From assembly GCA_934778125.1 (NCBI GenBank), contig CAKVOF010000002.1, forward strand, positions 1 through 60,703: 60,703 nucleotides of DNA, given 5' to 3'. The position numbers and the translations under genes are program-made. Below are positions 2,854 to 20,696 of this stretch, piece after piece. The notes beneath the pieces are model-generated. The model did no database searches. It had not been told where the DNA came from and saw nothing but the letters and a program-made list of their open reading frames with translations. This DNA is from an uncultured Clostridia bacterium (lineage in GTDB: Bacteria; Bacillota; Clostridia; Christensenellales; UBA1242). How positions within the stretch are numbered: position 1 is the first letter of the stretch; each line of letters opens with the position of its first letter.

Positions 2854-4242
2854 ATGAAAATATTAAAAGTTTTAGGTAACTGTTGTTTAGTTTTCCTTGC
2901 AGTAATTAGTGTTTGTATCTCCCTTGCATTTTGTTATTATCATTTTTTTGTTGATGATATTATAATGGGTGTCAATTATATAGACAACCAAGTAGGCTTA
3001 GATATTGAAGAAAAATTAAAAAATGATACTACTATAACCGAAGAAGAGAGAAACGAACTAGAAGACAGATATTTTCTAGAAGTCAACTATTATAGCAACG
3101 AGAAAAAGAATGGTATCGAACTGCAAGAGTTAAAACTTAATTATTTTACAGATTATTCTTTGACTTCTTCTGCTTATCGTTCTACTGGTATGCAATATAT
3201 CGGCAATTACAAGGCACTTCCACTAGACACTTGGGATGGAAACAGTGAAGTTAAGTTTATGAAACTATTTGGTAATAACGATAGATATTACGGAACTTCT
3301 GATGAATGTGTTGCAATAGCAAACAATTATGTTGACCCAAACTTCTATTACTATGACTCAATAAATGGTGTCAATTTTAATGGTATAACCAACAATAATG
3401 GTAGTATCGCAACAGAACTTAAAAGAACAACTGGCTTTATTGTAAAGATAGATAATAGGGCTTTTGAAGTTAGACTTAACAAATACTTTGATAAAGATGT
3501 TGGCGATGTTAGAAATATCTTTGGTGTAGGTTGGAAAGTTGGCGAAAAATACAACCGTTATTATTACACCTATGGTAGTCTTTTCCAATCATGTTTACAA
3601 GCAACAAATATTCAAAGTGCTGGGAATGGAACATTTTATGTAACAGTAGATTTAAGTTCTTTATTTTCAATAAGAGAATACGACCTTACAACTAAAAAAT
3701 ACAAAGAAGATAATGTTACAGATGTTATTAAAAACTATGCTGTTATGAAATTCACAAAAAATGAAAATGGTGCAAGTAATAGCACTCAATCCATGTTCGG
3801 TATTATTGAAAATAGCACTAAATACGACTTAAAAGAAGACAAAATAGACACTACTTACTGGCAAGAAAGAATGCTTTATACATTATCTGAGAAAGACTTC
3901 ACTTATCGTTATAGTGATGTTTACAAGGGCTATTTTGCTAGTCTTAATTTAGACACTAAAAAGATGTTTGCAGATATGCCAAGAGCAAAAGTCAATATAA
4001 CCATGAACTTACAATCAAAATATTTGACAGATAACAAAATTAACATTGTTGGTTTTGATTATAACGGACTAGAAGATTTTGAAATTGATACGTTAACAAT
4101 TACTGGTAAAAGTCAAACATTTTATTTACTAGAAAAATCATTGTATAACACCAATTTACAAATACTTAAATATTCTAGTGGAATAACATTTGATTTTGGC
4201 TCTAATGCCATAAATAACGAATATACGGGGGTGGCTCTATGA
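2854..4242 (+). CDS. large N-terminally membrane-anchored protein (hypothetical, structural or adsorption module)
   Basis: AAGGAG RBS. 462 aa with an N-terminal TM (CCLVFLAVISVCISLAFCYYHFF). Its stop overlaps the next start (ATGA at 4239-4242). Confidence 0.65.
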   Translation: MKILKVLGNCCLVFLAVISVCISLAFCYYHFFVDDIIMGVNYIDNQVGLDIEEKLKNDTTITEEERNELEDRYFLEVNYYSNEKKNGIELQELKLNYFTDYSLTSSAYRSTGMQYIGNYKALPLDTWDGNSEVKFMKLFGNNDRYYGTSDECVAIANNYVDPNFYYYDSINGVNFNGITNNNGSIATELKRTTGFIVKIDNRAFEVRLNKYFDKDVGDVRNIFGVGWKVGEKYNRYYYTYGSLFQSCLQATNIQSAGNGTFYVTVDLSSLFSIREYDLTTKKYKEDNVTDVIKNYAVMKFTKNENGASNSTQSMFGIIENSTKYDLKEDKIDTTYWQERMLYTLSEKDFTYRYSDVYKGYFASLNLDTKKMFADMPRAKVNITMNLQSKYLTDNKINIVGFDYNGLEDFEIDTLTITGKSQTFYLLEKSLYNTNLQILKYSSGITFDFGSNAINNEYTGVAL

Positions 4243-4751
4243 AATGGTATTCTTATGTAATCTGCTTTATTTTAATAGTTGTAGGCACATTTTGTGGTAT
4301 TCAGTTATTTAAAGAAGTTAAAGCTGAAAGTTATGTAAATGGCACAATAGATATTTCTAATAAATTTAGTCAAGAAAGTTTCTTTTATTCTGACCAAAGT
4401 GTAGTGTTTTATCACGATACTTACGATGATACAGACACATATTCTTTTGAAAAGGACTTGTTAAAGGTTGAAGATTTTAACGGAACTGATAAAGAATATA
4501 AGATTGTTCTTAATAACTATGTATTGACTAATTGCGATATTAAGGCTGGCTCTATCTTCTCTACTATTTTAATGGACTTTTACAACACTGATGGAGAACT
4601 TGTTTGCCCCGCAACAATGCAGATGTCTATCAAATTTTTAAGCAACAAAACACAATTAACCTTAACAACAAAAGGTAACAAAAATTCAAGTTTCTTTGAA
4701 CAGTATTTCAAAGATAATGGCATTAAATTACAAGTTATAGAAATTTTATAA
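4239..4751 (+). CDS. N-terminally membrane-anchored hypothetical protein
   Basis: 170 aa with TM YVICFILIVVGTFCGIQLF. Translationally coupled to the upstream gene. Confidence 0.65.
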   Translation: MKWYSYVICFILIVVGTFCGIQLFKEVKAESYVNGTIDISNKFSQESFFYSDQSVVFYHDTYDDTDTYSFEKDLLKVEDFNGTDKEYKIVLNNYVLTNCDIKAGSIFSTILMDFYNTDGELVCPATMQMSIKFLSNKTQLTLTTKGNKNSSFFEQYFKDNGIKLQVIEIL

Positions 4752-4761
4752 AGGAGAAACT

Positions 4762-6882
4762 ATGGAAACAAAAAAAGTTTTAGGTATTATATTTAGCCTA
4801 CTCTTTGTTGGTGCATTTGCTTTTGTTCTTTCTTGGGGAATTATAAACTTCAATAAAATTAAAGATGGAATGTCTGGAACTGGTGTTTATACCAAAGAAG
4901 ATATAAACAAGTCGTACGAAGATGGTTATAATACTGCTCTAACAGATAAAGAAGAATATACAAAGCTTATTGCTAGTTATAGAGATACAATCACAACATT
5001 AAATGATAATATCTCACAACTTAATTCACAAGTTACTATTCTTCAAAATAACAACAAAGATTATTCAAATCAAATTGACAAATTGAACACACAAAAAACT
5101 TCTCTTGAAACACAAGTAAATAATCTTACTACAATCAAAACAAATAATGAAACCACTATTGCAAGTTTGAATAGTCAAATCGCAAGTTTGCGAAATCAAG
5201 TTACTAATCTTACAAATAGTGGCGAAGATAAAAGCGAACAAATCAAAACTTTGAACAGCCAAATTACGACATTACAAAACACTGTTTCACAGTTACAAAC
5301 CATTAATAATATGAATGTTGATACTATCACAAGTTTGAATACACAAATTACTAATCTTAATACTCAAATAAGTGATATGACTTTACAATCTCAAAATTCA
5401 CAAAGTCAAATCAATGCTCTTAACAACAAAATCAGCGAACTACAAACAAGTGTAACTTACTATGAAAGTTATATTGCACAACTTGAAAATGGCGAACAGG
5501 TCGTTGCAACATTCGAGTTTGATGGAAGTGTCTATAATATTCAAATCGTAAATAAAGGTTCTAAACTTTCTGTAACAACTCCAACAAGTACTGACTATAA
5601 AATATTTAATGTTTGGACTGTAAATGGTTCTGCTATTGATTTATCTACTTACACAATTACTACCAACACAAAAATTGTTGCAGATGTTACATATAAATAT
5701 GATGTTAAATTCAAAGTTGACAATACAATTTACAATAGTCAAATAGTAACTAAAAATTGTTATGCAACAATACCCACAAATCCAACTAAAACTGGTTATG
5801 AGTTTGATGGTTGGTCTTTGAATGGTGTTGATGTTATATCAGATATTACAACTAGACAAGTTACACAAAATGTAACATATATTGCCGTGTTTACTAAAGT
5901 TCATAATGTTACTTTTATTAATGGAGACAATGTTATTTCAACTCAGATGATAAGAAATGGTGAATATGCAGAAACTCCTTCCAAACCTTTTAAACCTGGA
6001 TATCTTTTTAATGGTTGGACTATAAATTCTTTACCTGTGGAATTGACATCATATAAGATTTTTAACGATGTTGTAATTAATTCTAATTTTTCTCAATTAA
6101 CTTGGAAAGAAACTGACACCGGTATTTATACTCCTGGTCCTGTTGTAACTTTTAATTCAAAACAATATTCAATAATTGATGGTAATGTTCATGTTTTTGA
6201 CAAAGACAACAAGCAATGGAATTTGATTATAACAAATCCAGATACAACTTTGACTTCTGTTTCTTTATGGACTGATAATACACATTTATTCATTTCATAT
6301 AATAATAGCAATGGACTAAAACCACACAATTATTTTATAGATACTGAAAAAAATCAATTAATTGAAACCCCATTCTTTAGTAAAAGTGTAATTTTTATAT
6401 ATAATACAATTATTAATATTGATGGTATTATTTATTTAAATTCTTCTAATCCTTTAGATTCTTCACATTCTACAGAAGTGTTTAATAGCGAAACTATGCA
6501 GTTTGAAGAAAGCGAAATAACTTTACCTGTTGGTGAATATTTCACTTTTAAGGGTATTACTTATGTATTTTATCAAAATATTCTTTACAAATATAATAAA
6601 AACACTAATGCTTTAGAAGATATTGGATTTACTAAAAGGTTTACTTCTGTTTCTGGCTTTTGGACTGATGGTGATACTTTATATTTTAGTGCTCCGGGTT
6701 ATAGTGATGATGTAAATGTTTGTCTAAATGAAATAACTAATACTTGGGTTGAAATAACTTGGGATACTGCTTCTCAAATACGTGGTATGGATGTTTGGTC
6801 TGATGGAGAGAATGTTTATGTTTCTTGTAAAAATCCATATACAAACACTACGTATGCGTATGTTTTATCAGTAAAAAATTAG
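4762..6882 (+). CDS. TM-anchored coiled-coil protein with Listeria-Bacteroides-type repeats and a repeat-rich C-terminal domain; candidate host-adsorption (gIII-like) protein
   Basis: AAGGAG RBS. N-terminal TM, then a coiled coil of about 190 aa with recurring LNSQI/LNTQI heptads. Three units of about 65 aa contain G(Y/F)xFxGW (GYEFDGWSLNG, GYLFNGWTIN, FNVWTVNG). The C-terminus has repeated W(T/S)D..xxY(F/I/V)S blades. Confidence 0.6.
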   Translation: METKKVLGIIFSLLFVGAFAFVLSWGIINFNKIKDGMSGTGVYTKEDINKSYEDGYNTALTDKEEYTKLIASYRDTITTLNDNISQLNSQVTILQNNNKDYSNQIDKLNTQKTSLETQVNNLTTIKTNNETTIASLNSQIASLRNQVTNLTNSGEDKSEQIKTLNSQITTLQNTVSQLQTINNMNVDTITSLNTQITNLNTQISDMTLQSQNSQSQINALNNKISELQTSVTYYESYIAQLENGEQVVATFEFDGSVYNIQIVNKGSKLSVTTPTSTDYKIFNVWTVNGSAIDLSTYTITTNTKIVADVTYKYDVKFKVDNTIYNSQIVTKNCYATIPTNPTKTGYEFDGWSLNGVDVISDITTRQVTQNVTYIAVFTKVHNVTFINGDNVISTQMIRNGEYAETPSKPFKPGYLFNGWTINSLPVELTSYKIFNDVVINSNFSQLTWKETDTGIYTPGPVVTFNSKQYSIIDGNVHVFDKDNKQWNLIITNPDTTLTSVSLWTDNTHLFISYNNSNGLKPHNYFIDTEKNQLIETPFFSKSVIFIYNTIINIDGIIYLNSSNPLDSSHSTEVFNSETMQFEESEITLPVGEYFTFKGITYVFYQNILYKYNKNTNALEDIGFTKRFTSVSGFWTDGDTLYFSAPGYSDDVNVCLNEITNTWVEITWDTASQIRGMDVWSDGENVYVSCKNPYTNTTYAYVLSVKN

Positions 6883-6883
6883 G

Positions 6884-7714
6884 TTGATACGAATTATGAT
6901 AACAATAATTTTTGCACCGCCAAGAACTGGTAAAACTTGCTTTATGACGCATATGTTAAACATTCAAGCATTCAATAGACAACGAAACAGACAAATGCAA
7001 GTAGAACTATCAAACAAAGTGCAAAACGGCTTTACAAATATAAAGACTATACCTATTCACTGTGTTTCAGCCAACTATGACTGCAAATTCAAAAAGTTTG
7101 GGTATAGTCCAAGATTTAGCCGTAGAATAAACCCATATAGACTAGGCTTTGCAAACAAGTTTGTAAAAACACATTTCAACTTACCTTTTGAGTGTATCGG
7201 CATAACGGAAGCCCAAAAGTATTTGAATAGTAGAATGTCAATGTATTTTCCCGAATGGCAAAGCCGTTGGTACGAACAGCACGGACACAATAATTTAGAT
7301 ATATTCCTAGACACCCAAAGACCAATGCTAATCGATGTAAACATTCGAGAACTAGCACAGTTTATTGAAATTGTAAAACTTGACATTGATTATGATGAAT
7401 ATGACAAAGTTAAAAGTTTAACTTGGAAAATTAGAAAGATTGAAAATAGTAGCCTATTTGATAGATATATGGCAAGCGGAAAGAAAGATAAAGAGTGCTA
7501 TACCGAAGAAACAGTAACAGCAAACTACAATGTATTTGAGTGTTATGATAGTCAAAATTGCAAGCCAAAGTTCTATGAAGGTCACTTTGATGAAGATATT
7601 GACTATAACGAAAGTGAAAATACGGAAGAGACACTGCAAGGCTATATCAAATATTTACAAGGAAACGATGATGAGCTACCCGAAAATTATTATCAAAGGA
7701 GAAAAGCAAGTTGA
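6884..7714 (+). CDS. Zot / pI-like filamentous-phage assembly ATPase
   Basis: N-terminal Walker A, IIFAPPRTGKT. The ITEAQ and HGHNNLDIFLDTQRPMLIDVNIRELA blocks match the DEAQ and hRHxGxDiixxtQ...iR pattern of the Zot family. TTG at 6884, or ATG at 6896 (MITIIF...), is the start. Confidence 0.7.
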   Translation: MIRIMITIIFAPPRTGKTCFMTHMLNIQAFNRQRNRQMQVELSNKVQNGFTNIKTIPIHCVSANYDCKFKKFGYSPRFSRRINPYRLGFANKFVKTHFNLPFECIGITEAQKYLNSRMSMYFPEWQSRWYEQHGHNNLDIFLDTQRPMLIDVNIRELAQFIEIVKLDIDYDEYDKVKSLTWKIRKIENSSLFDRYMASGKKDKECYTEETVTANYNVFECYDSQNCKPKFYEGHFDEDIDYNESENTEETLQGYIKYLQGNDDELPENYYQRRKAS

Positions 7715-8094
7715 TAAATTTTAATAAAAACAAACTTATAAACAAAACCCTAGACAAGTATTATGAAACCTTTTCTCACACCCTAGACACTGCCGACTAT
7801 GTTCCAGAAAAGTTTAATAATAAAATACATAAATACATTTACAAAAATATGAAAAAAGCCTTTCGCAAAATAGACAAAGAAGACAACAAGTATCAGAAAG
7901 GCTTAAAACGAAAACTCAAACTGAAACAACAAGAAGAAAAAGCAACCGAAGACAAACCAAAGAACAAACTTGCTTTATTCTTCCAAAAGTTGTTTTCATG
8001 CAAAAAGCGAAGTGAAATTGTCAAGGAAAAAGCAGATTATTTTTTGGAACAAAAAATCAACGAGTGCGATAGCACTTCTGCCCTTGACAAGTGA
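7711..8094 (+). CDS. lysine-rich hypothetical protein
   Basis: TTG start 9 nt after AAAGGAG, overlapping the stop of the ATPase gene (TTGA). 127 aa, no TM. Confidence 0.5.
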   Translation: MINFNKNKLINKTLDKYYETFSHTLDTADYVPEKFNNKIHKYIYKNMKKAFRKIDKEDNKYQKGLKRKLKLKQQEEKATEDKPKNKLALFFQKLFSCKKRSEIVKEKADYFLEQKINECDSTSALDK

Positions 8095-8335
8095 ACAAGC
8101 GAACTAAACTCTTGCAATGCAAACCACAAACAATAACATTGTTTCGGGGTTTGGTTGCCTAACGGCGAGTGTGACATTAGGTCAAGGAATGTTTTCCTTG
8201 CGGGTTTGGGCAGAGCCCAAGAAAAGAAAGCAAGTAGTCTAACGATAGCATTTTCGCACCGGGGCCAAGGGCTTGCCCGAGCCCCGTGCGAGAGTGTTAC
8301 TCTACTTGACAATAGTAACACTCAACGGAAAATAT
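8095..8335 (+). other. GC-rich, hairpin-dense non-coding island (candidate ssDNA origin or packaging signal, or a structured RNA)
   Basis: 86 G+C in the 160 nt at 8141-8300, against 15/60 in 8341-8400. Nested or serial hairpins at 8120-8153, 8158-8181, 8183-8200, 8206-8220, 8255-8290 and 8292-8323 (10-bp perfect stem). The track ORFs here overlap each other and lack an RBS. Confidence 0.6.
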
Positions 8336-8356
8336 TTTATAGATGGAGATTTAATT

Positions 8357-8596
8357 ATGTATTTTAGCGAAAAAGATGTTCATATACAAAACAACAAACA
8401 ATTAGAAAATATAGAGAGAAGATACCCTATTGTTAATAAAGTTCGTAGTGTTTTTGAATTATTTTTTGAAGATAACGGACAGTTAAGAATAGTAGAGTGT
8501 TGCGATGGTTATTTTAATGAAACACTTTCAGTTGAAGAATTAAAACAATTATCTCAATATTTTTTAGAAGTTGCAAAATATATTGAACATAAATAA
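8357..8596 (+). CDS. small hypothetical protein
   Basis: ATG at 8357, 7 nt after GGAG. The longer track ORF (8273) would begin inside the GC-rich hairpins. 79 aa. Confidence 0.5.
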   Translation: MYFSEKDVHIQNNKQLENIERRYPIVNKVRSVFELFFEDNGQLRIVECCDGYFNETLSVEELKQLSQYFLEVAKYIEHK

Positions 8597-8618
8597 AAAT
8601 TTATTTTGGAGAAATAAA

Positions 8619-8846
8619 ATGGTTATAAGAGATAAAATAATTACTTTAAGAGTAAACAAAAAAATATATGAAAGAGTTCTTGAAATAATTGAAAACAATA
8701 CAAGAACTTATGAAACAAGAGCAACAAGGTGTTCTTTTAATGAATTGAAAGGCAAATACTCTCAAGGTTTAAAGTATTATAGAAAATTCTCTGTTGGCGA
8801 TTTATTAGAAATTGCTATGAATGAATTTATTAGAGATAATGAATAA
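8619..8846 (+). CDS. ribbon-helix-helix (CopG/Arc-like) DNA-binding protein
   Basis: ATG at 8619 after GGAGAAA. The N-terminus IITLRVNKKIYERVLEII fits the RHH beta-strand plus helix pattern. 75 aa, directly upstream of the iterons and rep. Confidence 0.55.
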   Translation: MVIRDKIITLRVNKKIYERVLEIIENNTRTYETRATRCSFNELKGKYSQGLKYYRKFSVGDLLEIAMNEFIRDNE

Positions 8847-8853
8847 CTTCAGT

Positions 8854-8898
8854 TTATTTGTAATACAAATTGCTTCAGCGAAAAAGTATTACAAATAA
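8854..8898. repeat. 13-bp perfect inverted repeat (hairpin) downstream of the RHH gene; candidate nick-site hairpin or terminator
   Basis: TTATTTGTAATAC (8854-8866) / GTATTACAAATAA (8886-8898) with a 19-nt loop. The arms contain the TAATACAAA iteron core. Confidence 0.6.
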
Positions 8899-8910
8899 TT
8901 CGAAAAAAAC

Positions 8911-8968
8911 TAATACAAAAATACCTGGTTTAAAAGTAATACAAAAATACCTGGTTTAAAAGTAATAC
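8911..8968 (+). repeat. 26-bp tandem direct repeats (2.2 copies), candidate Rep-binding iterons
   Basis: TAATACAAAAATACCTGGTTTAAAAG at 8911-8936 and 8937-8962, then TAATAC at 8963-8968. Located 25 nt upstream of rep. Confidence 0.75.
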
Positions 8969-8993
8969 TTTTGTTCTTAAGATAAATATAAAA

Positions 8994-9992
8994 ATGGGAG
9001 TTTTTATGGAAGAATTAGAAAAACAAAAAACTGCCTATTACTTGTTCCAAAAAGATAGAATATATAGAGATAAAACATTAACATCGCTATACTTTCAATC
9101 TAATAAAGAACGAGTAGACAAAAAAAGTCAACCATACGATATTGATGGCATAAGGTATAAACTAATTAAAGAAACTGGTGAGTTAGAATACTATACAAAA
9201 AGTGAAATTCAAAACTCCCTCGCATGTTCATTAAGGCGTACAAAAATATTGTTAAATATGTTGCTAGAAATGAATGATTTTGATTGGTTTGCTACATTAA
9301 CTTTTGATAAAGAAAAAATCGACAGGACTGATGATAATTTAGTTTATGGTGCATATGTTAAATACATCAATAATATTAAACATAAGTATCCAAATTTTAA
9401 ATATATTACTGTTCTAGAAAGACACGAGGATATGTGTATACATTTTCATTTACTCATCGCTGGAATGACATCACAACAATTAGGGCTAGTTAATTCTGGA
9501 AAAGTTTGTTGTTCTTGGGCTTATTATAAAAACAAAATAGCAAGCCGTGAGTTTTTTGAAAAAACTAAAAGTGAACACGAATTAACAGATACTGATGGAC
9601 TGACTGTATATAATGTTACATCATTCCCTTATGGACTTACTACTGTTACTAGAATAGCAAGTCGTGAAAGATGTAATAGTTATGTTAAAAAATATATTAA
9701 TAAGGATATTGGAAAATCAACTGAGATTTTTAAGAAACGATTTTTTTATTCTAAAAATTTAAAAGTGCCTAATATTGTTAGTAGGCTTATAGGTGCAGAT
9801 TTTGACACACCAAAAAACATAAAAGACATTATGTCAAACAACCCACATTTTCAAAATGCTGACTTCACTAATTACAACGAAGAACATAACATTTTGCAAT
9901 ACTGGGAAGACAACAGTGTTAAAAATTGTATTGATAAAGGTTATATTCCTTTATCACAAAAAATAATTGAGGAATTAGGAGATATATTTTAA
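8994..9992 (+). CDS. HUH-superfamily rolling-circle replication initiator (Rep)
   Basis: All three RCR motifs are present: WFATLTFDK (motif 1), CIHFHLLIAG (HUH motif 2) and NSYVKKYINKD (Tyr motif 3, two Tyr spaced YxxxY). The likely true start is the ATG at 9006, 5 nt after GGGAG. Confidence 0.8.
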   Translation: MGVFMEELEKQKTAYYLFQKDRIYRDKTLTSLYFQSNKERVDKKSQPYDIDGIRYKLIKETGELEYYTKSEIQNSLACSLRRTKILLNMLLEMNDFDWFATLTFDKEKIDRTDDNLVYGAYVKYINNIKHKYPNFKYITVLERHEDMCIHFHLLIAGMTSQQLGLVNSGKVCCSWAYYKNKIASREFFEKTKSEHELTDTDGLTVYNVTSFPYGLTTVTRIASRERCNSYVKKYINKDIGKSTEIFKKRFFYSKNLKVPNIVSRLIGADFDTPKNIKDIMSNNPHFQNADFTNYNEEHNILQYWEDNSVKNCIDKGYIPLSQKIIEELGDIF

Positions 9993-12040: not shown

Positions 12041-12112
12041 AATACCCACCACTTAAAATTTTAAATATAATACAATAATGCTAAACAAAAGTCAAACAAA
12101 GGAGAATTAGTT

Positions 12113-13144
12113 ATGAAAAAAAGAAGAAATTTAACATTTACACAAAGATTACAAATAGAAACATTATATAATGCCAAGAAGACTAAAAAAGAAATTGCCC
12201 AAATACTTGGTTTACATCTCTGCACTATATACAGAGAATTAAAACGGGGTGCTTATGAACATACCACAAAGCAAGACACATTTTGGTATGGTGTTAGAAT
12301 TAAAAAACAAATAAAATATTCTGCTCAAATATCACAAGATAGATATGACTTGCTTTGCTCTGGTAAAGGCAGACCAATTAAACTTGGTAAAGACTTTGCT
12401 TTTGTTAGGTATATGGAAAAGAGAGTTATAAAAGACAAAATATCTGCTTGTGCAGTTCTTGGTGAGATTAAGTATAAGAATATGCAGTTTGATACAAACA
12501 TAAGCAAAACCACTCTATATAGATATATTGAAATGGGCTTATTTCCACATATCAGATTAGAGAAACGAAAGAAAGAATATAAAAAAGTCAAAATTAAACG
12601 AGCGCCAAAAGGTACAAGTATTGAAAGGCGACCAAAAGAGATTAAACAAAGAAATTCATTTGGACATTGGGAAATGGATTGTGTGTGTGGTAAAACAAAG
12701 CCCGTGCTTCTAGTGTTAAGTGAAAGACTTACACGAAAAGAAATAATTTTCAAAATGGAAAATCAAAAAACAATTAGTGTTGTTAAGTGCTTAAACATAT
12801 TGGAAAGAAGATTTGGTAAAACATTCAAAAAACTATTTAAGTCAATTACAGTAGATAACGGAAGCGAATTTGCAGATTTTCACGGCATAGAAAAGTCTTC
12901 TTATGGTCACGGTAAGCGAACATCTGTCTTTTATTGCCACCCTTATTGTTCTAGTGAAAGGGGCACAAACGAACGACTTAATAGAGAAATACGAAGACTA
13001 ATACCAAAAGGCTCTGATATTGGTAAATACACAATACAAGACATACAAAGAGTTGAAGACTGGGTAAACAACTACCCGAGAGAAATATTTAACTATGCTA
13101 CATCTTCTGAACTCTTTGAGAAACATTTACAAGCAATAGCCTAA
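12113..13144 (+). CDS. IS30-family DDE transposase
   Basis: N-terminal HTH (LTFTQRLQIETLYNAKKTKKEIAQILGLHLCTIYRELKRG) plus the catalytic blocks HWEMDCV, TVDNGSEFADF and ERGTNERLNREIRR typical of IS30-type transposases. AAGGAG RBS. Confidence 0.85.
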   Translation: MKKRRNLTFTQRLQIETLYNAKKTKKEIAQILGLHLCTIYRELKRGAYEHTTKQDTFWYGVRIKKQIKYSAQISQDRYDLLCSGKGRPIKLGKDFAFVRYMEKRVIKDKISACAVLGEIKYKNMQFDTNISKTTLYRYIEMGLFPHIRLEKRKKEYKKVKIKRAPKGTSIERRPKEIKQRNSFGHWEMDCVCGKTKPVLLVLSERLTRKEIIFKMENQKTISVVKCLNILERRFGKTFKKLFKSITVDNGSEFADFHGIEKSSYGHGKRTSVFYCHPYCSSERGTNERLNREIRRLIPKGSDIGKYTIQDIQRVEDWVNNYPREIFNYATSSELFEKHLQAIA

Positions 13145-13168
13145 AAAACAAAATACAGCCACTTTTTA

Positions 13169-13194
13169 AGTGTGTTAGATGCACACTCTTTTTT
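13169..13194 (+). terminator. probable terminator after the transposase gene
   Basis: 6-bp stem AGTGTG (13169-13174) / CACACT (13182-13187) followed by CTTTTTT. Confidence 0.45.
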
Positions 13195-13231
13195 GCATAT
13201 CATAAAAAAGAAAAGTCAAAGAAATTTTTCC

Positions 13232-13259
13232 TATTCATACCCTTGCAAGGGTATGAATA
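13232..13259. repeat. perfect 28-bp palindrome
   Basis: TATTCATACCCTTGCAAGGGTATGAATA is its own reverse complement. It lies between inverted copies of the GAAAAGTCAA(A)GAAA motif (13210-13224 and 13328-13342). Confidence 0.8.
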
Positions 13260-13315
13260 TATGGTTACAACAACCATTTTACACAGTTCTTTAACTTTTT
13301 TTAAAATTTTTCAAT

Positions 13316-13342
13316 TTTTTTGCTATATTTTCTTGACTTTTC
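13316..13342. repeat. right imperfect terminal inverted repeat of the element
   Basis: Its reverse complement, GAAAAGTCAAGAAAATATAGCAAAAAA, pairs with 1084-1110. It ends 1 nt before the right 17-bp direct repeat. Confidence 0.55.
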
Positions 13343-13343
13343 A

Positions 13344-13360
13344 TTTATTTAAACTTTTTT
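13344..13360. repeat. 17-bp direct repeat, right copy (TTTATTTAAACTTTTTT)
   Basis: Identical to 1067-1083. Confidence 0.8.
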
Positions 13361-19648: not shown

Positions 19649-20482
19649 TTAATACCAAATTTTTAACAACATTTTAAATTTAAATAAAGAACACTGTCCA
19701 TTAATTTTTATTCTATTAATTTTCATAGGGTTGTTTTTTCTTGTTGATGGAATGTATGGTCCAGCAAAGGAAAATGCTAGTTTATAGTTAAAATCATTCG
19801 CTGTGTTTCTAACCAATTCATTTGATGCACCAAAAGGATATGCCATGTATTTCATATCATATTTTTCCATTTGCTTAAAATCATTAATAATTTGTTCTTT
19901 TGTCATTGAATAAACAACTGGCTTGTTATTATTACTCATATGATGCATATTAAAGGTATGACTTTGAATATCAAAATTAGGATATTCCGTTTTAATTAAA
20001 TTAATTTGTTTTTCACTTATATGTACTTGTTTTGTTTGACCTTCATTCCACACAGCATCTTTTTCAATTTCAGAAGCAATTACAAATAATGTTGCTTTTA
20101 AATTGTATTTTTTCAAAATTGGCAAAACTATATAATAATTTTCAATGTCTCCATCATCAATAGTTATAACACAAGTTTTTGATGTGTTATAATTAGTTTT
20201 GCCTGTGTACCAATCATAGTATTCATCTAAAGATAATGTTCTATAACCATTGTCCGCCAAAAAACTCATCTGTTTTTCAAACATCGTTTCTGAATGAACC
20301 CATTGATTATTTTTATAATATTGATTTTTTACATTGTCTTTGACCACTCTATGAAAAGTTAATACCACCATCATATCATCACCCTTTTTAGTAAAACAAC
20401 AAACAAATCTATATATAGCCAATGAAAAAAGAATAGAAACTGAAATTAAAAAAATTGCAACAACATAATTAATTTTTCTCAT
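19649..20482 (-). CDS. polysaccharide deacetylase (NodB-homology) with N-terminal TM anchor
   Basis: VITIDDGD (the TFDDG-type motif 1) and later His motifs (QSHTFNMH). N-terminal TM. Confidence 0.7.
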   Translation of the reverse strand: MRKINYVVAIFLISVSILFSLAIYRFVCCFTKKGDDMMVVLTFHRVVKDNVKNQYYKNNQWVHSETMFEKQMSFLADNGYRTLSLDEYYDWYTGKTNYNTSKTCVITIDDGDIENYYIVLPILKKYNLKATLFVIASEIEKDAVWNEGQTKQVHISEKQINLIKTEYPNFDIQSHTFNMHHMSNNNKPVVYSMTKEQIINDFKQMEKYDMKYMAYPFGASNELVRNTANDFNYKLAFSFAGPYIPSTRKNNPMKINRIKINGQCSLFKFKMLLKIWY

Positions 20483-20497
20483 AATGGTTTTACCTTT

Positions 20498-20529
20498 TAA
20501 AAAATAAAAAAGTGGCTAACACTAGCCAC
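20498..20529 (-). terminator. rho-independent terminator after the tRNA pair
   Basis: On the minus strand, stem GTGGCTA / TAGCCAC (20512-20518 / 20523-20529) with a 4-nt loop, followed by TTTTTTATTTTTT. Confidence 0.7.
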
Positions 20530-20532
20530 GTT

Positions 20533-20609
20533 TGGTAGGAATGAGTGGACTCGAACCACCGACCCCCACCTTATCAGGGTGGTGCTCTAACCTGCTGAGC
20601 TACATTCCT
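20533..20609 (-). tRNA. tRNA-Ile (anticodon GAU), CCA encoded
   Basis: Reverse complement is AGGAATGTAGCTCAGCAGGTTAGAGCACCACCCTGATAAGGTGGGGGTCGGTGGTTCGAGTCCACTCATTCCTACCA. It folds as a cloverleaf with anticodon loop CTGATAA. Confidence 0.9.
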
Positions 20610-20619
20610 ATATAAAATT

Positions 20620-20696
20620 TGGTGGAGATAATCGGATTCGAACCGATGACCCCCTGCTTGCAAGGCAGGTGCTCTAGCCAACTGAGCTATACCCCC
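20620..20696 (-). tRNA. tRNA-Ala (anticodon UGC), CCA encoded
   Basis: Reverse complement is GGGGGTATAGCTCAGTTGGCTAGAGCACCTGCCTTGCAAGCAGGGGGTCATCGGTTCGAATCCGATTATCTCCACCA. The G3:U70 pair is present and the anticodon loop is CTTGCAA. Confidence 0.9.

Follow-up and report, generated by a model that had tools for sequence, protein, structure and literature searches.

In the filamentous phages of the Ff group (M13, f1 and fd), both origins of replication lie between the assembly genes and the rep gene, the complementary-strand origin coming first and the nick hairpin second in the 5'-to-3' direction, and the packaging signal is the first hairpin past the assembly genes. The plasmids pBAA1, pTA1060 and pTA1040 carry, in the non-coding DNA of a rolling-circle replicon, a single-strand origin (sso) of a type whose name we take to be ssoT, and sso1 of ICEBs1 is considered here together with them. 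The origin of phiX174, with the gpA site CAACTTG|ATATTAATAACACTATAGACCAC, is placed within gene A; in pC194-type plasmids the nick sites read CTTG|ATA. Functional sso regions lie at 6349-6549 of pTA1060 and 5109-5307 of pTA1040, the pBAA1 type needing three stem-loops (Wright et al. 2015, PMC4595007), and to be active an sso must be placed on the displaced leading strand (PMC5703833); in these papers ssoT is named as one of the classes, and the sso of pTA1060 is treated on its own. In the integrative filamentous Xanthomonas phage phiLf, a short GC-rich dyad hairpin beside the origin is the experimentally mapped packaging signal (bioRxiv 10.1101/2023.12.30.573655). With these systems we compare a GC-rich, hairpin-dense island at 8095-8335 of a 60,703-nt stretch of DNA (the window) from an uncultured Clostridia bacterium, contig CAKVOF010000002.1.

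We consider it probable, at roughly 0.85, that an integrated inovirus-like (filamentous, single-stranded DNA) element has its cis-acting replication region in this island and that the region is built of three modules: hairpins H1-H4, hairpin H5, and hairpin H6 with a conserved core. An unexplained structured island would in this way resolve into three assignable cis elements of an uncultured filamentous prophage family, one found widely among the Christensenellales of the gut and among other Clostridia (matches in 51 genomes at species level). The parts are known kinds of elements in a new setting; no new RNA and no new kind of mechanism is revealed. An earlier, sequence-only reading had likened the island to the Ff intergenic region. 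Its position after the assembly genes and before rep stands, and so does the complementary-strand origin, with our covariance model R2 (below) finding the sso of pTA1060 and pTA1040. Homology to the Ff minus origin does not, as R2 has no match in M13 5400-6100 (L073; L numbers denote loci) at E<=1; by this comparison H1-H4 are a functional analogue of the Ff minus origin and not its homologue. The Ff likeness extends to the presence of both predicted origins in one region and to their 5'-to-3' order. The features of the island are as follows.

8081-8119, + strand: conserved stretch flanking the sso module on its 5' side, CCCTTGACAA-N-ACAAGCGAA(C)TAAACT
8112-8227, + strand: ssoT-type single-strand (complementary- or lagging-strand) origin, H1-H4, assigned by covariance-model homology
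8120-8153, + strand: H1, CAAAC..GTTTG stem with an AAC triloop
8157-8182, + strand: H2, with the loop CGGCGAGTG
8183-8200, + strand: H3
8206-8220, + strand: H4, with an AGA triloop
8221-8254, + strand: unpaired A-rich linker containing CGATAGCA at 8243-8250, kept only in close relatives
8255-8290, + strand: H5, a GC-rich bulged stem of 5+5+3 pairs with the apical part GGGC-TTG-CCC, its structure universal and its sequence variable
8292-8323, + strand: H6, a 10-bp stem (GAGTGTTACT/AGTAACACTC) with a 12-nt loop holding the predicted nick site
8302-8330, + strand: predicted core of the plus-strand (double-strand) origin, CTACTTG|ACAATAGTAACACTCAACGGAA, with the nick predicted at G8308|A8309

A predicted plus-strand origin linked to Rep

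H6 and the core are the predicted recognition and nick site of the Rep protein encoded downstream, that is, the plus-strand origin, an element that the sequence-only reading did not propose.

8994-9992, + strand: Rep, rolling-circle initiator, matching PF23343 (REP_ORF2-G2P, E 7e-11), with the motifs FATLTFD, HFHLLI (HUH) and YVKKYINK (two tyrosines)

The core (CTACTTGACAATAGTAACACTYAACGGAA) corresponds to the H6 loop plus the 3' arm. It is near-invariant, with a single copy in each element that is confined to the Rep strand, among Reps of 27-100% identity, and conservation of the nick site far exceeds that of its Rep. The distance from core to Rep is 15-330 nt, the core being upstream, and reaches ~1.3 kb in elements with inserted open reading frames (ORFs), as in the window. 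The H6 stem covaries in distant relatives around a fixed loop (GTTGCT/AGCAAC in L024, GTGTGTCTT/AAGACACAC in L049), and bajarodino virus 1 (PQ006139) carries AAGTGTCCTT-TACTTGACAAT-AAGGACACTT directly before its Rep.

The core also resembles the origin of phiX174. An ungapped alignment of CTACTTGACAATAGTAACACT with the phiX174 sequence CAACTTGATATTAATAACACT gives 17 identities over the first 21 positions, CTTG|A and TAACACT included. When phiX174 3981-5386 was scanned on both strands, the origin was the top ungapped match of the core and the next best reached 12/21; a shuffled query attained 17/21 in 0.05% of trials (P=0.0005). The phiX174 record annotates its origin, CAACTTG|ATATTAATAACACT, at the A after CTTG (position 4306), and we infer from the alignment a nick at the equivalent G8308|A8309. 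The window Rep motif YVKKYINK aligns with YVAKYVNK (343-350) of phiX174 gpA, which contains the two catalytic tyrosines, and the FxTLT motif is shared as well; Y230, Y234 and K237 of Rep are invariant in 30 homologues. There are also differences: the window site is non-coding, upstream of rep and spread over the loop and the 3' arm of its 10-bp hairpin, whereas the phiX174 site is inside a gene, and as whole proteins the two Reps show no detectable similarity (BLASTP E 0.58). The nick context also recalls Ff, in which pII cuts M13 at CTTT|AATAGTGGACTC (position from PMC11962056) and G2P belongs to the same Rep Pfam family, and phiLf, in which one hairpin of the compact ori/PS run of DNA hairpins (SL1-SL4) bears the CTTG motif for recognition and nicking by a superfamily-I Rep. 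At the level of sequence comparison, the linkage of the core to Rep and its similarity to the phiX174 origin are established; a predicted phiX174-type nick site has stayed almost unchanged while Rep diverged to 27% identity.

As a practical consequence, the 22-nt marker ACTHGACAATAGTAACACTYAA locates such elements in metagenomes. A metagenome scan with the core 22-mer retrieved 21 further loci, several of them in hosts of higher G+C (41-51%), where the core lies between a Zot-like P-loop gene and a Rep of 27-34% identity. These higher-GC-host loci are, in oriented coordinates:

L058:6171, L059:11712, L060, L065, L068 and L070:6854

Different, large hairpins precede the core in them, and in L058 an ORF resembling a tyrosine recombinase takes the place of the IS30-like gene described below. 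The single-copy rule has one exception, L062, with a second exact copy of the 11-mer CTTGACAATAG at 5364-5374 (- strand), ~1.8 kb from the origin copy at 7141-7151 (+ strand).

The TTGACA in the H6 loop had been read earlier as a promoter mimic; it belongs instead to the CTTG|A nick motif, which is near-invariant. A promoter called there by the scan, TTGACA(8306)-16-GAAAAT, was rejected on the ground that its second hexamer is not kept in relatives.

A predicted single-strand origin of the ssoT family

H1-H4 are non-coding, lying between the stop codon at 8094 and the ORF at 8357. We aligned 18 distinct prophage islands (family A) over 8079-8343 with MAFFT. On this alignment the six-hairpin structure is paired in 93.5% of cells and 13 pairs show compensatory changes; none of 500 shuffles did as well, and slid structures were paired in 28-54%. 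The pooled, model-fitted alignment of H1-H4 is paired in 96.5% of cells, again with 0/500 shuffles as good and slid structures at 28-66%. Compensatory change had been named by the sequence-only reading as the check on its stems, and the stems do covary, in 20 of 28 pairs of H1-H4 and in 13 of 13 pairs of H5. In family A, G.T wobbles fill 76 cells and A.C wobbles 15, and in 16-18 of the 18 islands the fold of the + strand is more stable than that of the - strand; the excess of G.T over A.C and the better folding therefore indicate that it is the + strand that folds. Pairing in H1-H4 is under selection, with a defined strand and orientation.

Outside prophages, H1-H4 have relatives on plasmids. 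By blastn against PLSDB, window positions 8150-8222 match non-coding DNA of 86 small plasmids (from Bacillus thuringiensis and lactobacilli), 80 of them typed as mobilizable, and the matches keep the H1-H4 hairpins with compensatory changes, for example tgcctaacggcgagtgattaggtggtcaagcgaacttcgcttgtgggtttgggcaacgcccaaga in pLP41P-5. A covariance model, R2, built from the 18 prophage islands only (alignment A5, 113 positions, 28 pairs), gave the following matches, with approximate E-values.

pLP41P-5, L084 1469-1576: 58.5 bits, E 8e-15
pGI1, L085 1923-2051: 49.1 bits, E 3e-12
pTA1060, 6423-6556: 35.4 bits, E 2e-8 in 82 kb and 2e-7 in 796 kb
pTA1040, 5183-5310: 33 bits, E 1e-7
IMG/VR contig L077, 2595-2709: 36.3 bits, E 1.3e-8
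IMG/VR contig L079 (IMGVR_UViG_3300025834_000086), 6180-6285, - strand: 34.1 bits, E 5.3e-8

The pTA1060 and pTA1040 matches coincide with the published sso coordinates (PMC4595007). Window and ssoT elements, ICEBs1 sso1 included, share the series of hairpins and, as conserved motifs, the CAAAC..GTTTG and H3 stems, the GCCnAnCGGCGAG loop and GGGTTTGGGCAnAGCCCAAG; the window and the plasmids also share the placement in non-coding DNA of a rolling-circle replicon and the orientation relative to rep. The sso and rep are co-stranded in the window, pTA1060 and pLP41P-5, and the matches of R2 and of a second model, R1 (H5, H6 and core), fall on the rep strand at every locus, in agreement with the leading-strand requirement of an sso (PMC5703833). 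Taken together, covariance-model homology places H1-H4 in the ssoT family. The host differs, being a filamentous prophage of Christensenellales-like gut Clostridia and not a plasmid or an integrative and conjugative element, and H2 of the window is short, whereas pTA1060 and pGI1 have an extra hairpin of 30-40 nt within H2. The viral contig L079 (6.3 kb) combines a strong Zot match with a Rep_1 protein (PF01446, pC194/pUB110-type) and carries its ssoT-like element on the gene strand; from this gene content, the sso cassette would be common to inovirus-like elements with unrelated Reps. The lagging-strand origin of these phages would thus be of the same family as that of small Bacillus and Lactobacillus plasmids and of ICEBs1. 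In the literature searched, no paper was found that connects a single-strand origin with inoviruses whose hosts are Gram-positive, and ssoT in this setting may be unreported.

The 5' flank, from ~8081, is possibly part of the sso. It is kept in 18/18 family-A islands regardless of reading frame, and plasmid ssoT (pTA1060 and pTA1040) carries GGAGTTGAC at the equivalent place. The 3' end of the upstream 127-amino-acid (aa) ORF overlaps this conserved sequence of non-coding type, and its stop position shifts among relatives while CCCTTGACAA...TAAACT stays.

These assignments suggest how the region would work. It would act as DNA, mainly while the + strand is single-stranded. The two-tyrosine, superfamily-I HUH Rep would recognise the core and nick CTACTTG|A in the H6 loop; rolling-circle synthesis from the nick would displace the + strand, and the round would end at the same site. 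Once the + strand had been displaced, or had newly entered a cell, H1-H4 would fold and, by analogy with plasmid sso elements, host RNA polymerase may be recruited to them and make a short primer from which the complementary strand would be synthesised. H5, which always adjoins the nick hairpin on its 5' side and is selected for shape but not for sequence, would most likely serve as packaging signal, or otherwise as an accessory of the plus origin. In practical terms, such an arrangement could provide a minimal origin cassette for phagemids or vectors producing single-stranded DNA in anaerobes that are hard to manipulate.

H5, module exchange and rival readings

H5 was analysed with R1, which matches each of 57 loci once, in every case on the Rep strand and with H5 just 5' of the nick hairpin. 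On the R1 alignment all 13 pairs are compensated, the outer helices are paired in 97-98% and the apical one in 88% of cells, and ~1% of cells are G.U; the alignment is model-fitted and these percentages lean high, and independent folds of each sequence give the same hairpin. The circular inovirus genome PQ006139 (GenBank) has H5 too; the plasmids that share H1-H4 lack it. With no U tract it is not an intrinsic terminator. Because its shape alone is conserved, it is restricted to phages and it adjoins the origin, our best guess is that H5 is a packaging (morphogenetic) signal. The packaging hairpin of phiLf offers a precedent, being likewise short, GC-rich, dyad-symmetric and adjacent to the origin, but it lies 3' of the origin hairpins and measures 20-26 nt, whereas H5 lies 5' of the nick hairpin and measures 36 nt; the Xanthomonas consensus GGX(A/-)CCG(C/T)G is not in H5. 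No hairpin comparable to the 78-nt hairpin A of Ff was identified. An accessory element of the plus origin, acting in firing or termination, is about as plausible a candidate as a packaging signal.

The islands of related elements bear on what kind of signal occupies this slot. A scan of species-representative genomes yielded 51 loci, nearly all in metagenome-assembled genomes of gut Christensenella and Clostridia, and blastn places the island upstream of Rep in ~40 of the 51; in L001-L003 and L010 it abuts the rep start. Conservation is uneven, the 3' end being near-invariant, the preceding hairpin conserved in structure only, and the 5' two thirds present in alternative versions. The sister prophages L005-L008 (Rep 75-77% identical) and many others have, in place of H1-H4, two to four long hairpins whose arms resemble DnaA boxes, such as TGTGGGTAA...TTATCCACA and TTTTCCACATTTCCA, with G.T wobbles on the + strand. 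Allowing at most one mismatch, TTATCCACA occurs at 4.4/kb in the 270 nt upstream of H5, against 0.32/kb elsewhere in the loci, and has no match in family A; no DnaA box is found in the window's island. The + strand of these hairpins folds better in 21-23 of 23 cases. The loci with the replacement module are:

L006:5700-5880, DnaA-box hairpin module
L005, L007, L008, L012, L014, L015, L021-L026 and L029-L033, the same module
L037, L039-L045, L050 and L064, further loci with this module

Other loci hold further, unclassified modules in the slot. A DnaA box in a hairpin stem is a known class of priming signal on single-stranded DNA in Escherichia coli plasmids (ABC primosome), and in filamentous phages of Firmicutes the replacement hairpins may act as a complementary-strand origin that depends on DnaA. 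Since H1-H4 are swapped for DnaA-box hairpins, the slot appears to hold exchangeable DNA replication signals, which argues against reading H1-H4 as an RNA.

A broader and tentative proposal, which we hold possible at somewhat less than even odds, is that the slot between the assembly genes and the nick site is a swap site for lagging-strand-origin cassettes in Firmicutes filamentous phages. Were it true, some lineages, that of the window included, would carry an ssoT of plasmid and ICE type; the DnaA-box hairpins of sister lineages would be a DnaA-dependent priming signal undescribed for such phages; H5, which never changes place, would be the still-unknown packaging signal of Gram-positive inoviruses; and, for an uncultured group of gut phages, cis elements (a plus origin, a minus origin and a packaging signal) would be defined for the first time. 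As a separate observation, 25 nt of L006 (5744-5768) match 25 plasmids exactly (for example NC_001774 3557-3581; E 1e-2), nearly all of them small mobilizable plasmids from Pasteurella, Actinobacillus, Mannheimia and Glaesserella; the match may reflect a shared DnaA-box hairpin or chance.

Among the rival readings, the one that survives best, though we think it improbable, is a structured RNA. It would be a small RNA, or else a leader of ~230 nt at the 5' end of the rep (or regulator) mRNA, transcribed from TTGACA-N15-TAAACT (8084-8110) and controlling Rep expression. The sequence-only reading had entertained such an alternative (leader, ribozyme or small RNA). Several of our results would fit a transcribed RNA as well as single-stranded DNA and so weigh against the replication region: the folding + strand is also the mRNA-sense strand, so that strand asymmetry cannot separate the two; ~13% of pairs in H1-H4 are of the G.T (G.U) type, some of them invariant; and the conserved promoter-like TTGACA...TAAACT stands directly 5' of H1 in 18/18 family-A islands. 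In close relatives, moreover, the island leads straight into the rep ribosome-binding site. However, H1-H4 are homologous to validated plasmid DNA origins that are not located upstream of rep, and sister elements carry DnaA-box hairpins instead of this module. A search of Rfam 15, as the earlier reading had suggested, gave no family match in the island at gathering thresholds and only noise at E<=10 (mir-132 at 16 bits and the like). As a sigma-A promoter, TTGACA...TAAACT was rejected, its spacer of 14-15 nt being outside 16-18 nt and the promoter scan making no call; the island has no intrinsic terminator; and H5 is near-free of G.U despite heavy variation. A weaker argument is that triloops (AAC in H1, AGA in H4) are more typical of DNA hairpins. 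The absence of an Rfam match, the homology to DNA elements and the module swapping together disfavour an RNA. More generally, strongly covarying, RNA-like islands in prophages can be single-stranded DNA signals, and some caution is due.

It is very unlikely, in our estimate, that the island is a set of duplex binding sites (operators, iterons or cruciforms) for Rep or a repressor, controlling transcription or origin firing with no single-stranded function. H5 and H6 are almost purely Watson-Crick and both strands could extrude as a cruciform, GAGTGT(G/T)AC recurs in the manner of iterons (direct at 8167-8175 and 8292-8300, inverted once at 8315-8323), and CTTGACAA is present twice (8083-8090 and 8305-8312, the second copy being the nick motif). 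Yet the arm sequences vary freely with complementarity kept, which points to selection on pairing and not on half-sites, and the G.T pairs of H1-H4 are strand-specific. The CGGCGAG(T/G)G loop is also kept in plasmids with unrelated Reps and is therefore not a Rep iteron, while cruciform extrusion of H6 is compatible with a plus-strand origin and is no rival to it. That H1-H4 are instead a packaging signal or an origin of transfer (oriT), as the mobilizable plasmids among the matches, the pGI1 match ~100 nt upstream of mobV and the first-hairpin position of the Ff packaging signal might suggest, has very little probability, given that in pTA1060 the match falls on the published sso, with mobV 2.5 kb away, that plasmids are not packaged, and that the window element encodes no relaxase.

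Beyond the points shared with an RNA, the following weigh against the cis-acting replication region as we propose it. The case for sso activity, priming and nicking runs through homology. The covariance-model E-values are rough, coming from a short calibration, and the pTA1060 and pTA1040 scores are moderate (33-35 bits), H2 there carrying a large insertion. Published ssoT has a 5' stem-loop, GAGTCAACGG...GTTGACTC (also given as GAGTCAACGG...GGAGTTGACTC), upstream of the part matched by R2; its counterpart in the window is weak, TCAACG (8057-8062)...CTTGAC (8083-8088), with 4 pairs, in the end of an ORF. The packaging role of H5 is a guess, and H5 could also be a Rep accessory site or a transcription barrier. 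Short contigs were searched for terminal repeats, a sign of circular genomes, and none was found; no circular or episomal contig of the lineage was seen, and activity of the window's prophage is a prediction.

The prophage and the composition of the island

The sequence-only reading had called the surroundings a phage-like element, and the Zot-like ATPase match, albeit weak, and the rolling-circle Rep (PF23343) confirm it. Large ORFs of structural type lie upstream of the Zot-like gene, and the genes around the island are:

6884-7714, + strand: Zot-like assembly ATPase (pI analogue) with the P-loop FAPPRTGKT; Pfam Zot weak, E 6.5e-4, 19.6 bits against a cutoff of 20.3
7711-8094, + strand: lysine-rich 127-aa ORF, the last gene before the island, with homologues in L071 and L064
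8357-8596 and 8619-8846, + strand: two small ORFs of 79 and 75 aa, with no Pfam matches

The Zot-like gene marks the end of the morphogenesis module, and a homologue lies upstream of the island in all related loci. The order Zot, intergenic region, core, Rep recurs in more than 50 prophages and in the GenBank Inoviridae genome PQ006139. The related loci are always within larger contigs and are for that reason taken to be prophages. The protein collection holds 297 Rep homologues, and by Rep the nearest GenBank phages, at ~30% identity, are the bajarodino and Dulem viruses, unclassified Inoviridae found in the faeces of rodents and lemurs. Scans of IMG/VR with Zot and Rep singly, and then with a Rep alignment, found no relatives, and blastn of the island against GenBank phages (50,697 records) found nothing relevant.

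The two small ORFs form an insert of ~650 bp (8339-8984) between origin and rep, at which blastn synteny breaks (8338/8985). L001-L003 and L010 are without it and have the nick site 15-40 nt from the rep start. The pair may be a regulatory cassette. Separately, the N-terminus of the 75-aa ORF, ITLRVNKKIYERV, resembles a ribbon-helix-helix.

Unlike Ff, the element integrates, apparently by means of an IS30-like DDE transposase (HTH_38 + rve) encoded at 12113-13144 within a syntenic block at 12085-13344. The gene keeps its relative position, with 66-94% DNA identity, in L001, L002, L004, L006 and L039, and is probably the element's own integrase and not an independent insertion sequence. The island holds no tRNA or tmRNA fragment that could be an attachment site.

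As to composition, the window is AT-rich (30% G+C overall), and 8141-8300, with 86 G+C in 160 nt, is the highest-GC stretch of that length in the 60.7 kb (mean 48, sd 8.8). The earlier count of 86 is reproduced exactly; that of the next 60 nt, given as 15 G+C, is 16. All six inverted repeats were found where that reading had put them, and its TTGACA hexamers (8084-8089 and 8306-8311), with TAAACT 15 nt after the first, are correctly placed. Its statement that nearly every base can be put in a stem was too strong: the six stems take up 110 of the 204 bases of 8120-8323 (54%). The second repeat (CCTAA/TTAGG, H2) has only 5 Watson-Crick pairs and one flanking G.T, and the arms of H6 are a perfect inverted repeat. 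Against dinucleotide shuffles, folding stability has a z of -5.2 on the + strand and -4.95 on the - strand, with 0/200 shuffles as good. The island is non-random and under strong structural selection.

Two further pairings were considered and rejected. A long-range RNAalifold pairing of CGAGTG (8166-8171) with CACTC (8319-8323) would involve the CGGCGAG(T/G)G loop, an ssoT motif found also in plasmids without this particular nick site, and an alternative fold of AACTAAACTC with GGGGTTTGGTT is impossible in relatives carrying CAATTCCCC/GGGGAATTG. The linker sequence CGATAGCA is a direct repeat (8067-8074 and 8243-8250). Its likeness to TAGCGA/T of the ssoA motifs CS-6/RSB is only loose, and we make no claim from it. 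The first copy is in the loop of a small hairpin, AGTGC-GATA-GCACT, within the end of the 127-aa ORF.

An Rfam match to HPnc0260 at 20445-20571 (60 bits against a threshold of 59), on the opposite strand, rests on tRNA overlap and is probably spurious. The only GC peak in the window comparable to the island lies there, near 20.5 kb, where tRNA-Ile(GAT) and tRNA-Ala(TGC) are adjacent on the minus strand (20445-20696), as in the spacer of an rRNA operon.

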